Sequence record: PZ452608.1
Origin: a phage
Direction: 5' to 3' (one strand)
DNA length: 64,000 nucleotides
Shown here: piece by piece, positions 27,210 through 29,181 of the stretch
Position numbering within the stretch: position 1 is the first letter of the stretch
Layout: each line of letters begins with the position of its first letter
The notes under the pieces: model-generated
The model's input: the letters and a program-made list of their open reading frames with translations, nothing else
Told to the model about the DNA's origin: nothing
Database searches by the model: none
Made by a program: the position numbers and the translations under genes

Positions 27210-27253
27210 AATGACCTCAAAGTTATATTAAATTTTGTATTATATTGAGTATA

Positions 27254-27283
27254 AAAATAAGCTATAACACCTGACTTGTCAAC
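27254..27283 (-). promoter_or_regulatory. Candidate - strand promoter TTGACA-N18-TATTTT (weak -10)
   Basis: Minus-strand TTGACA at + coordinates 27278-27283; overlapped by a 13-bp inverted repeat. Confidence 0.3.
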
Positions 27284-27301
27284 AGATTTTATAGCTTATT
27301 T
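27255..27301. promoter_or_regulatory. Operator-like perfect inverted repeat (13-bp arms, 21-bp spacer)
   Basis: AAATAAGCTATAA at 27255-27267 and TTATAGCTTATTT at 27289-27301; spacer contains the - strand TTGACA. Confidence 0.5.
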
Positions 27302-27317
27302 GGCAGATTTTTTATAA

Positions 27318-27398
27318 GGCTACTGCCATCCTTCCATACCAAACCAAACCTTACAAGACCCAACCACACATCACTGTACTCAACAGAACTCTACCCTA
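27318..27398. repeat. G-poor CA-rich low-complexity tract (A1)
   Basis: ggctactgccatccttccataccaaaccaaaccttacaagacccaaccacacatcac...; almost no G on + strand. Confidence 0.6.
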
Positions 27399-27476
27399 CC
27401 TCATTAAAAGACCCTCTTAAAGACCTTTTAAAAAGGTAAGTCTCATTTTAATGTAGCTGAGACTAACTACCCATAC
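27399..27476. repeat. Direct repeat copy 1 (58 nt identical core 27419-27476)
   Basis: aaagaccttttaaaaaggtaagtctcattttaatgtagctgagactaactacccatac is identical to 28812-28869; preceded by cctcattaaaagaccctctt. Confidence 0.8.
27430..27467 (-). terminator. Intrinsic terminator on - strand (module hairpin plus U5)
   Basis: On - strand GUUAGUCUCA-loop-UGAGACUUAC followed by CUUUUUAAAAGG; lies about 130 nt downstream of the 27597 stop. Confidence 0.5.
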
Positions 27477-27529
27477 CAGACCCTACCTTACCAAACCAGA
27501 CCTCACCCTACCCCACCATACCGTATACT
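27468..27529. repeat. G-poor CA-rich tract (A2)
   Basis: tacccataccagaccctaccttaccaaaccagacctcaccctaccccaccataccgtatactac. Confidence 0.6.
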
Positions 27530-27569
27530 ACCTCATTAAAAGACCTTGTTTAAAGACCTTTTAATGAGG
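27530..27569. repeat. Perfect 12-bp-stem hairpin (AAAGACC repeat unit 2)
   Basis: CCTCATTAAAAG-accttgtttaaagac-CTTTTAATGAGG; contains two AAAGACC words 13 bp apart. Confidence 0.6.
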
Positions 27570-27588
27570 AGCCTCCGAAGAGGCTACC
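27568..27588 (-). other. GC hairpin with UUCG-type loop immediately 3-prime of the 27597 stop, no U-tract
   Basis: GGAGCCTC-CGAA-GAGGCT on + strand, same hairpin family as the window terminators but followed by CUCAUUAAAAGG on - strand. Confidence 0.45.
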
Positions 27589-27596
27589 TAGTCAAC

Positions 27597-28037
27597 TTAG
27601 AAAGGTTTTCTGCGTTGCTTGTTAATGTTAGCTTTCATAGCAGCTAAATGGTTTTGCTGTTCAATTAGTCGTGAACGTTCTTGGTGGCTAAGTGCCATAG
27701 TATTCACATTCTCAATTGCTTGAGTGGCTTGCTTTAAAGCTCGACCAATCTTACCAGACATTTTGCGTTTTGCAATAGTTGCTTGATGCTTAGGTTCAAC
27801 CACACGATAACCAACACCCATTGAAGCAACCAGATAAATCTTCTCTTCTTTAAGAAGCTTCTCAATAAACTTCTCAAGTCGGTTTAGACGTGTAAGTGCA
27901 TAAGCCTTCATTTCATCTTCGTACTTAACAATGTCACCTTGATAAGTTGGCTTCACAATACCTAAGAAGGTGTCCATCTCAGAATGTGATACAGTGTCAC
28001 CGTAACTAAACTTTGCTGCTAATGCTTTTGTATTCAT
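27597..28037 (-). CDS. Hypothetical protein (cassette gene 2)
   Basis: 146 aa ORF, ATG start, basic C-terminus KANINKQRRKPF; stop 3 nt after cassette gene 1. Confidence 0.5.
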   Translation of the reverse strand: MNTKALAAKFSYGDTVSHSEMDTFLGIVKPTYQGDIVKYEDEMKAYALTRLNRLEKFIEKLLKEEKIYLVASMGVGYRVVEPKHQATIAKRKMSGKIGRALKQATQAIENVNTMALSHQERSRLIEQQNHLAAMKANINKQRRKPF

Positions 28038-28039
28038 AA

Positions 28040-28627
28040 TTAAACGTTACCTTCTGAAATAACTTCTACAGAAAAACGACCAAAGCGTGGACGCCAATCA
28101 CCTACACCACAAAGGTTACCAGCATTTTCCAGAACCATCAAGAGTTCTTCTTTGGTGATTTGCTCTTCATCGAACATCAAACCAAACTCTACAGACCAGT
28201 CACGGAAGATTGGACGGTAGCTCATAACTCGTGCTGTACCAATCTTAACAGACTTAGCATAGATAAAGTCTGGATTCTTCGCAAGTTCTTGTGGGTTTGC
28301 TGGACAATTCTTGATAGTCATTGGGAAGACTACATCTGTCAGCATAATGGCTCGGTCAATTACCTTACCAAGTTTGTTTAGTTTTGCACCAGACTTGATA
28401 CAAGCCTCAATCATCTCACCGTTCATAACAAAACCTAGTTGCTCATCGTAGTAACAAGAAGTTACCAGTTGGCTTTCTGCTAAGAGCGCATAGTCTTCGT
28501 CAGTCTTTTTACGCTTACTGGACAGAGACTTGTGATATTTTGTCAGAGGGTTTAATGGGTCTGACAGCGTATCGTTATGGCTCAGGAAAGGACGAGTACC
28601 AGTGATTTTGATATTTAACAGTTTCAT
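28040..28627 (-). CDS. Hypothetical protein (cassette gene 1)
   Basis: ATG at 28627 with GGAG RBS (track start 28642 is GTG); 195 aa, no recognisable motif. Confidence 0.5.
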
Positions 28628-28719
28628 AGCATTTAGCTCCACACTTTAGTTGATTGTTAAGTTGTTTGTAAAGAACCCTCAACAGAAGACTCTTTAGAAA
28701 CTTGGTAGATTTTTAACGT

Positions 28720-28790
28720 GGCTACTACCATCCACCCATACCGTGCCACACCACACCGGACCGTACCATGCCCAACCCTACTACACCAGA
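28720..28790. repeat. G-poor CA-rich tract (B1)
   Basis: ggctactaccatccacccataccgtgccacaccacaccggaccgtaccatgcccaaccctactacaccagacc; begins with same ggctactNccatcc as tract A1. Confidence 0.6.
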
Positions 28791-28869
28791 CCTTATTAAA
28801 AGACCCTCTCCAAAGACCTTTTAAAAAGGTAAGTCTCATTTTAATGTAGCTGAGACTAACTACCCATAC
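28791..28869. repeat. Direct repeat copy 2 (58 nt identical core 28812-28869)
   Basis: Identical to 27419-27476; preceded by cttattaaaagaccctctcc. Confidence 0.8.
28823..28860 (-). terminator. Intrinsic terminator / attenuator on - strand inside the leader of the cassette
   Basis: Same hairpin plus U5 as 27430-27467, about 200 nt upstream of the 28627 start codon and downstream of the candidate promoter at 28998-29025. Confidence 0.45.
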
Positions 28870-28928
28870 ATTACCGCACCATATTATACCCTACCCCACC
28901 ATACTTCACTGCACCGAGCCACGCATTA
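28861..28928. repeat. G-poor CA-rich tract (B2)
   Basis: tacccatacattaccgcaccatattataccctaccccaccatacttcactgcaccgagccacgcattaca. Confidence 0.6.
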
Positions 28929-28967
28929 CATCACTTAAAAACCCTTTTCAAAGACTCTTAAGTGATG
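28929..28967. repeat. Hairpin, degenerate copy of the AAAGACC unit
   Basis: CATCACTTAA-aaacccttttcaaagactc-TTAAGTGATG. Confidence 0.5.
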
Positions 28968-28997
28968 CTGGTGAGTACCCGTTGGTTTATGATGCTC

Positions 28998-29025
28998 AGT
29001 ATACTCACCAAATTTTCTATGTCAA
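28998..29025 (-). promoter_or_regulatory. Sigma70-like promoter on - strand, TTGACA-N16-TATACT
   Basis: + strand tgtcaa at 29020-29025 and agtata at 28998-29003 read as TTGACA and TATACT on - strand; overlapped by inverted repeat GGTGAGTA...TACTCACC (28970-29009). Confidence 0.45.
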
Positions 29026-29181
29026 CAACTTTTATAAAAAAGTTCTGATAGCTATATGCGTCACGAAACAAAAGATTGTAAACAAGACACCCATTGCAAA
29101 AGATGTGTCCAAAAGCTTACTTGCAACGTATGACAATACAAAGACAACCAGTATAAACAAAATGACTGTACTGAACATAGT

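Follow-up and report, generated by a model that had tools for sequence, protein, structure and literature searches.

The minus strand of positions 27298-29025 in a 64,000-nucleotide stretch of phage DNA (sequence record PZ452608.1; hereafter the window) carries, with high confidence, a type II VIPR (Viral Interference Programmable Repeat) locus of the SUSP1 clade. VIPR was described in a preprint (bioRxiv 10.64898/2026.04.26.720920, 25 June 2026) that takes phage SUSP1 as its model. As presented there, the system comprises an ancestral RAMP protein of ~20 kDa, Vipr, and an accessory gene, vap, the product of vap1 being a predicted DNA-binding protein; the flanking intergenic regions give rise to guide RNAs of ~100 nt, the vrRNAs, composed of 9-16 YNNGG repeats and an invariable 3' tail. 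Vipr and vrRNA together read double-stranded DNA via the NN dinucleotides, with one base skipped between pairs. For SUSP1 the same source reports vrRNA expression, a ribonucleoprotein with Vipr, the skip rule in vitro and in vivo, an effect of vap1 and, by experiment, repression of target transcription, and it gives a satellite phage of E. coli as the natural target of the clade (bioRxiv 10.64898/2026.04.26.720920).

The locus studied here has four tracts of 11-14 repeat units with hypervariable NN on the strand of vipr, 3' tails of ~40 nt with a hairpin and a pseudoknot, and guides that fit an E. coli satellite under the 1-nt skip. Our evidence was obtained in silico and consists of the anatomy of the locus, the identity and fold of its proteins, the association of the arrays with the vipr strand, the hypervariability of NN, the covariation of the tails and the matches to targets. 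An earlier reading of this DNA from its letters alone (the sequence-only reading) had proposed that two non-coding islands and the gene pair between them form one accessory unit, as the VIPR identification bears out, and had put that unit forward as a candidate for something undescribed. The latter does not hold: both the kind of system and its clade have been described, with a near-identical locus, that of SUSP1, as the model (bioRxiv 10.64898/2026.04.26.720920). What the present instance adds is a layout of two vrRNAs on either side of the genes, four guides that are not shared with SUSP1, and specific predicted targets.

Positions 27100-29300 are 100% identical to positions 59099-61299 of Escherichia phage wV8 (NC_012749.1), and likewise to several O157 typing phages; about 250 records from Felixounavirus, Suspvirus and Mooglevirus match the same interval at 80-99%. 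Judged by this identity, the source phage is wV8, a Felixounavirus. Neither wV8 nor Felix O1, a relative discussed below, is named in the main text of the VIPR preprint (bioRxiv 10.64898/2026.04.26.720920).

Every gene in the region lies on the minus strand. A repeat search found the two islands and their shared modules where the sequence-only reading had put them: a unit of ~94 nt occurs four times, at 27339-27432, 27471-27564, 28731-28824 and 28869-28962, with a common 67-nt start (ttggNagattttt...ggctactNccatcc), and a 38-nt hairpin module is present in identical copies at 27435-27472 and 28828-28865. The CA-rich tracts of the islands are strictly period-5 (NNACC)n arrays of constant register. 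ACC at a period of 5 (at least 5 of 10) is found in four places only in the 64 kb, all of them island tracts, one of which scores 10/10. On the minus strand the tracts read (GGYNN)n, with 11-14 units each in which GGY is fixed and NN is variable, and a conserved tail of ~38 nt, folding as a hairpin plus pseudoknot, comes after every array. The G-poor, CA-rich composition of the islands is that of the complement of (GGYNN)n. The minus strand is the functional one, and ggctactNccatcc, as given in the sequence-only reading, is a vrRNA 3' tail in reverse complement.

We delimit four vrRNAs on the minus strand. Upstream of vipr, U1 (28823..28929) has ~13 YNNGG repeats (28866-28929), tail A (28828-28865) and a U run, and U2 (28699..28792) has 11-12 GGYNN repeats (28738-28792) and tail B' (28704-28737). 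Downstream of the gene pair, D1 (27430..27532) has 12-13 GGYNN repeats (27473-27532), tail A (27435-27472) and a U run, and D2 (27302..27400) has ~13 repeats (27336-27400), several of them degenerate (xGY), and tail B (27302-27335).

Tail A has the sequence GGGUAGUU-AGUCUCA-GCUACAUUAAAA-UGAGACU, with an AGUCUCA/UGAGACU hairpin and a GUAG/CUAC pseudoknot, and its stem takes the alternative form AAUCGGA/UYCGAUU among relatives. In tail B' the hairpin is GGUAG/CUACC and the pseudoknot GUGG/CCAC, and in tail B they are GGCAG/CUGCC and AAGG/CCUU; tails of this class in relatives have GGCAG/CUGCC, GGUAG/CUACC or UGUCG/CGAC as hairpin and AAGG/CCUU or GUGG/CCAC as pseudoknot. Covariance analysis, one of the checks suggested in the sequence-only reading, supports these foldings. 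Three hairpin pairs of tail A are changed on both sides, with 100% of cells paired, and tail B has two compensatory pairs in the hairpin and two in the pseudoknot; in slid controls only 23-51% are paired. The pseudoknot pairs of tail A are invariant and thus have no support from covariation.

Triplets at a period of 5, 11-14 to a tract and with hairpins close by, resemble the trp leader of B. subtilis, in which there are 9-11 (G/U)AG repeats. An attenuator-controlled cassette, which the sequence-only reading had put forward, would on this model have a TRAP-like ring protein bind the triplets and switch between terminator and antiterminator, thereby controlling the two genes. We regard this as close to impossible. 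The triplet here, GGY, differs from (G/U)AG, two tracts of the four come after the cassette, and a promoter/terminator scan found no terminator-like site. The fold of gp95, the cassette protein taken up next, is that of a RAMP and not of TRAP, and a Pfam search gave no TRAP-family (MtrB) match. The spacer dinucleotides, moreover, hold target-matching information, so that the variable NN match foreign DNA rather than forming part of a regulatory leader.

The two cassette open reading frames (ORFs) are co-oriented on the minus strand, as had been noted. The sequence-only reading saw no recognisable motifs in their products, which is contradicted by gene 95 of wV8 (gp096; here gp95; 28040..28627), a 195-residue ancestral RAMP, Cas7-like protein. 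It is identical to SUSP1 Vipr at 191 of 195 positions (98%) and matches PDB entry 36pp ('SUSP1 Vipr protein', six chains) with an E-value of 6e-128 and 98% identity. An AlphaFold model, computed from an alignment of 40 sequences, scores 94.9 in pLDDT (predicted local distance difference test) and shows a RAMP fold. In the C-terminal motif, G170, G174, R179, G183 and F185 are invariant across the 40 homologues; this pattern would be compatible with a G-loop. Sequence and model together thus point to a small (~20 kDa), single-RRM RAMP homologue, as expected of the product of vipr. None of its 520 homologues has a Pfam domain.

The second gene, wV8 gene 94 (gp095; here gp94; 27597..28037), encodes a 146-residue protein that is identical at 145 of 146 positions (99%) to the product of the gene next to vipr in SUSP1. 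We take that SUSP1 neighbour to be vap1 and, on this identity, gp94 is assigned as Vap1, encoded adjacent to vipr. Few homologues of gp94 are detectable in a large protein database; with phmmer, at least 40 loci of IMG/VR, 28 of them distant, proved to have a gp94 homologue just downstream of their vipr homologue. Homology search and structure prediction, proposed earlier for both proteins, hence yielded a RAMP fold for gp95 and left the fold of gp94 unconfirmed. Pfam has no match for either protein, and PHROGs gave families of unknown function only. Both genes are labelled hypothetical in all GenBank records that we saw. A CRISPR-Cas system was considered and rejected: there is no array of 25-40-nt direct repeats with spacers, and the locus has two genes only, neither with a Pfam cas domain. 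The RAMP fold alone is common to both.

The arrays, the tails and the gene pair recur in related phages, where the sequence-only reading had suggested looking for them, and NN is hypervariable there. Between wV8 and Moogle, KhF3 and bumzen, both N positions differ completely from phage to phage and ACC is fixed. Across 18 related Ounavirinae loci, in which Vipr identity is 97-100% for 12 IMG/VR loci and 98% for SUSP1, 58 vrRNAs contain 41 different NN strings. A strict GGYNN tract detector, run on 80 IMG/VR loci with Vipr homologues of 39-100% identity, found 109 tracts on the vipr strand and none on the opposite one, all within ~1 kb of vipr. Over these 109 tracts the two N have entropies of 1.91 and 1.97 bits, and the positions of G, G and Y entropies of 0.67, 0 and 1.0 bits.

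The association also appears in the reverse direction. When IMG/VR was scanned for exact occurrences of (ACCNN)x7, with seven ACC spaced five bases apart, at least 120 contigs matched, many of which are unrelated phages bearing arrays of such arrays. When the test was made reciprocal, 36 of 120 loci found by this bare DNA pattern encoded a match to the Vipr profile, including nearly all of the degenerate arrays of arrays; the remaining loci, without a Vipr match, are mostly plain pentanucleotide microsatellites. Eleven IMG/VR contigs from unrelated phages (L017, L027, L105, L024, L033, L037, L016, L062, L064, L078 and L098) have 3-10 tandem GGYNN arrays split by a short conserved word, for example CCCATTAGCC, TAAATTCATTAAACC or AACTGCC (on the ACC strand), and each also has a distant Vipr homologue (E-values of 1e-9 to 1e-25). 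From their sequences these are probably other VIPR array architectures.

Such data bear on the possibility that the islands act at the level of DNA or transcription with no guide function, either as Rho-loading (rut) sites for plus-strand antisense transcripts or as an R-loop origin. The plus strand is indeed C-rich and G-poor over stretches of ~70 nt, in the manner of a rut site, and the minus strand, beyond a promoter, has its G in clusters and would be prone to R-loops. The locus, moreover, sits among ligase, polymerase and nucleotide-metabolism genes. We consider both variants extremely improbable. Neither Rho nor an R-loop needs a strict GGY period with free NN, the arrays are always on the vipr strand (109 tracts versus 0), and they co-occur with Vipr in unrelated phages. 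Moreover, Felix O1 replicates with one degenerate tract, and copy number varies in many relatives. A G-quadruplex reading was also entertained and was dropped once the preprint and the target matches had been found.

The gene cassette is present in wV8, SUSP1, SUSP2 and Moogle and absent from Felix O1, and relatives do not all have the same number of vrRNA units in an island. In Felix O1 (NC_005282.1; L005 2411-2692) there is a single island, in which the promoter and the leader hairpin from upstream are followed by one tract of 9-11 degenerate GGYNN units and by tail B, and many Salmonella felixounaviruses match only the part that is kept in Felix O1. By its sequence, this island is probably an orphan vrRNA left by a deletion between repeated units, in which the first leader was joined to the last tail. 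No satellite match above background was found for the NN string of this orphan guide.

The patchy presence of the cassette, the Felix O1 fusion of first leader to last tail and the variable number of units speak for repeats that serve mainly as recombination substrates, through which the cassette would be moved or lost in the way of PeSL cassettes in T4-type phages. A related proposal, a centromere-like partition site, has a basis in the KhF3 record (KT184315.1), which labels part of the region 'direct repeat sequence4 possible binding site of StbAB'. As explanations of the locus we judge these very unlikely. Recombination is a by-product of repetition and leaves the conservation of GGY, the covariation of the tails and the target matches unexplained. 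As for partition, no Par or Stb matches lie in or next to the locus, whose neighbours are vipr, vap1, the ligase gene and small hypothetical genes. Known par iterons are of ~9-12 bp and stand beside partition genes, so a strand-specific 5-nt period does not fit them. The VIPR identification also overtakes the label in the wV8 GenBank record (NC_012749.1), where the identical hairpin module already figures as direct repeat 'DR_4': both this and the StbAB annotation predate VIPR and are now misleading. That the islands might be the physical ends of the genome was suggested by the 608-bp terminal repeats of UAB_Phi87 and was dropped too: the record of that phage neither starts nor ends here, and the locus can be explained without the idea.

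The predicted targets of the guides lie in a chromosomal element of E. coli. In a BLAST search of the second island (that upstream of vipr) against 5,426 complete E. coli genomes, 153 matched at a vrRNA-like tract plus tail B', and the matches lie in islands of ~11-12 kb at wrbA/ymdF, at a DUF72 gene next to yecN, or at tonB/yciI. These satellites encode a large serine recombinase, baseplate, tape-measure and HNH proteins, small genes and a small (serine) recombinase. They carry a vrRNA of their own, with tail B' followed by a terminator hairpin, have no vipr, and are annotated with nothing at the vrRNA in RefSeq. BLAST found no tail A in E. coli genomes; the satellites bear the B' type only. 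We located satellite copies at L133 8053-19850 (E. coli SCU-387) and in L134, L135, L136 and L217; L131 and L132 have remnants. Numerous insertion sequence elements are scattered through many of the copies. The satellite baseplate protein is 68% identical to that of wV8 (gene at 13507-14280) and the tape-measure protein 37-44% identical (wV8 gene at 11258-12889). The satellite thus carries homologues of wV8 tail genes, which makes the locus look like a weapon that the phage directs at one of its parasites.

The link to defence and competition made in the sequence-only reading was right. We counted NN matches at skip lengths of 0-3 nt on both strands of six satellite copies (130 kb), using 39 unique guides from the 18 related phage loci. 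Under the 1-nt skip, 27 of the 39 guides reach at least 80% on the satellites; under the 0-, 2- and 3-nt rules 0, 0 and 1 do so. SUSP1 guide d3 matches the satellite recombinase gene at 18/18, with the 1-nt skip only. The published 1-nt skip rule and the satellite target class are thus reproduced independently.

For the wV8 guides, 200 shuffles of the NN order served as the null. U1 matches 23/24 in the tape-measure gene of the SCU-387 and AR_0369 satellites, in the sense direction (codons KVSAEMGRMIDK; predicted target AAAGTATCCGCTGAAATGGGAAGGATGATTGATAA), and the skipped base coincides with the wobble position; its shuffles have a mean of 16.9 and a maximum of 20. D2 matches 20/24 to 21/24 on the antisense strand of the large serine recombinase gene (shuffle maximum 19), and in the 20/24 match, which is in the L135 copy, the skipped base again falls on the codon wobble position. 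The best site for D1, at 18/22 (shuffle maximum 17), is intergenic and belongs to the satellite of E. coli AR_0369, with a methyltransferase gene ~160 nt downstream of it. U2 has a marginal 16/20 match at a site in the satellite tape-measure gene, a score that 7 of 200 shuffles reach. The target regions of D2, D1 and U2 occur in 277, 341 and 119 of the 5,426 E. coli genomes, the D2 set including O157:H7. BLAST with idealised targets gave slightly better alleles for D2 and D1, and no better allele for U2 among the complete E. coli genomes.

U2 and a guide of SUSP2 (L007/L148) have their first six NN in common (CT GT AG TG AT AC) and then diverge, and at the tape-measure site of U2 the SUSP2 sister guide scores 20/22. 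That the two guides share six NN, with SUSP2 fitting better after the divergence, suggests that guides evolve piecewise and track target alleles. Within the 64-kb window all wV8 guides stay below 80% under the 1-nt rule, the best self-match being at most 75% and no better than under other skip rules; as a control, the 3-nt rule recovers each guide's own locus at 100%. An exact IMG/VR scan with a 9-NN target pattern from D1 gave 0 matches. For U2, exact 9-NN matches (L129 7886-7911 and L130 4081-4106, in one unrelated contig family of ~85 kb) were rejected as a target and judged to be chance, because the NN on either side disagree and the skipped base falls outside the wobble position; about one or two matches to such a pattern are expected by chance.

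With these elements in hand, a mechanism may be proposed. The promoter at 29025..28998 would drive one transcript comprising two vrRNA units, vipr, vap1 and two more vrRNA units. Each vrRNA of ~100 nt would consist of 11-14 GGYNN pentamers and the hairpin/pseudoknot tail, the leader hairpins perhaps having a role in processing. Copies of the Cas7-like Vipr would line the repeat tract, probably one per pentamer, holding GGY and presenting NN; the NN dinucleotides would then pair with a double-stranded DNA target, one target base being skipped between pairs. By extension from SUSP1, as reported in the preprint (bioRxiv 10.64898/2026.04.26.720920), binding would repress transcription of the target and Vap1 would enhance the effect. 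In wV8 the four guides would be aimed at the ~11-12-kb satellite integrated in E. coli chromosomes. Two suggestions of the sequence-only reading come close to this scheme: paired small RNAs, the tracts being small guide RNAs, and binding-site arrays for a phage protein, that protein being the cassette's own Vipr, which would oligomerise on the tracts.

Several points weigh against this identification. The source for VIPR is a preprint, and expression, RNA ends and repression in wV8 are extrapolated from SUSP1; the experimental results should carry over, because the proteins are 98-99% identical and the tails are the same. The DNA binding predicted for Vap1, like its fold, could not be confirmed. 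Among the predicted targets, D1 reaches 80% in one of seven satellite copies sampled, and at the marginal (16/20) U2 site the skipped base is at codon position 1 and not at the wobble position. The self-target scan covers the 64-kb window, and ~24 kb of the wV8 genome lie outside it. Finally, the leader hairpins have no explanation in the preprint text on which we draw (bioRxiv 10.64898/2026.04.26.720920).

These hairpins stand before every vrRNA of the clade. Each has 12-13 bp and an AU-rich sequence with GUCUUU in the loop, and the 3' arm takes in the first GGU of the tract. The one before U1 is at 28930..28966 (AUCACUUAAGAG ... UUUUUAAGUGAU), and the same element precedes vrRNAs in SUSP1. 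The one between U1 and U2 (28790..28830; ACCUUUUUAAAAG ... CUUUUAAUAAGGU) extends over both the last part of tail A and the GGU with which U2 starts. An inverted repeat search found that before D1 (27531..27569; CCUCAUUAAAAG ... CUUUUAAUGAGG), and another is seen between D1 and D2 (approximately 27398..27437); all are on the minus strand. In the 18 loci the element is conserved throughout, in 29 sequence variants, and in the 64 kb the motif is absent outside the locus. By analogy, the leader hairpin may be a VIPR-specific processing or biogenesis signal, a counterpart of the CRISPR repeat cut by Cas6. One may also speculate on the orphan vrRNA of Vipr-less Felixounaviruses, which may be a decoy for the Vipr of a rival phage or a guide that borrows Vipr in co-infection. 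Taken together, these speculations seem to us unlikely.

Other features of the region concern its expression and its neighbours. A sigma-70-like promoter is predicted on the minus strand at 28998..29025 (TTGACA, 16 nt, TATACT; scan score 11/12), upstream of the first vrRNA and the vipr-vap operon, and is conserved in Felix O1, SUSP1 and Moogle. An imperfect inverted repeat at 28970-29009 (GGTGAGTA...N22...GTACTCACC), also present in these three phages, spans its -10 element and could be an operator. The gene of a Cro/CI-type regulator (gene 91) sits 1.5 kb downstream of this repeat. A second sigma-70-like promoter, that of gene 93, is predicted on the minus strand at 27254..27282 (scan score 10/12), inside the island and outside the VIPR unit. 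Eleven nucleotides past the vap1 stop codon there is a GC-rich hairpin with a UUCG tetraloop (AGCCUC UUCG GAGGCU; 27570..27585, minus strand), which is kept in SUSP1 and Moogle and has no U tail after it; lacking that tail, it is likely a stabiliser or processing element rather than a terminator. Rfam gave no meaningful match in the region at E-values up to 10, nor any match at the gathering threshold for 12 other array-bearing loci.

That both islands are free of credible ORFs, as had been claimed, does not wholly hold for the second, where a hydrophobic 48-residue ORF on the minus strand (29032-29178) lies between the ligase gene and the VIPR promoter and matches phrog_22006 at 5.5e-33. The non-coding part of this island is accordingly 28643-29031. 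The ORF is unannotated in the wV8 RefSeq record, and the sequence at this place differs in SUSP1 and Moogle.

VIPR is a recently described form of RNA-guided DNA recognition with a non-contiguous code; the RAMP effectors of CRISPR have been proposed to descend from it. Our analysis indicates that it can be recognised from raw sequence, as (GGYNN)n arrays around a small gene pair, and extends the SUSP1 clade to wV8, a classic typing and biocontrol phage for O157:H7. It also supplies concrete predicted targets of wV8 in the satellite, namely the genes for the tape measure and the large serine recombinase and a promoter-proximal site; a few percent of complete E. coli genomes carry the satellite, O157:H7 strains among them. 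For phage therapy and biocontrol, the presence of VIPR and the guide set may decide the success of a Felixounavirus on satellite-carrying hosts.

Of known systems, the SUSP1 type II VIPR (PDB 36pp) is the nearest. Vipr is 98% identical and Vap1 99%, both loci occupy the slot that separates the ligase gene from the gene 93 homologue, and they agree in the GGYNN tract with tail A or tail B, in the leader hairpins and in the E. coli satellite as target. The differences are the layout, with two vrRNAs upstream and two downstream in wV8 versus one and three in SUSP1, the NN strings, all four of which are unlike those of SUSP1, and the host genus, wV8 being a Felixounavirus and SUSP1 a Suspvirus. 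With the backbones of Class 1 CRISPR-Cas (Cas7, Csm3 or Cmr4 on crRNA) the locus has in common a protein oligomer along a guide, a guide with a variable part and a conserved handle, and periodically interrupted base pairing. In contrast to these, it has no CRISPR array, no cas1 or cas2 and no other cas genes; the VIPR guide is non-contiguous, two of five RNA bases reading two of three DNA bases, and its period is 5 nt instead of 6. VIPR is, in addition, phage-encoded and, according to the preprint (bioRxiv 10.64898/2026.04.26.720920), independent of a protospacer adjacent motif (PAM).

The (G/U)AG arrays of the Bacillus trp leader are similar in that a triplet recurs ~11 times at a period of ~5 nt and is bound by a protein oligomer; triplet, protein fold and function all differ, and the spacers, which are informative in VIPR, are irrelevant for TRAP. 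Phage-encoded CRISPR arrays offer a further parallel, for example the anti-satellite system of ICP1, a type I-F CRISPR directed against PLE. In both cases a lytic phage has an RNA-guided system that matches a chromosomal satellite parasite, and the two differ in machinery and in targeting code. Type II VIPR is reported to act by repression rather than cleavage (bioRxiv 10.64898/2026.04.26.720920).

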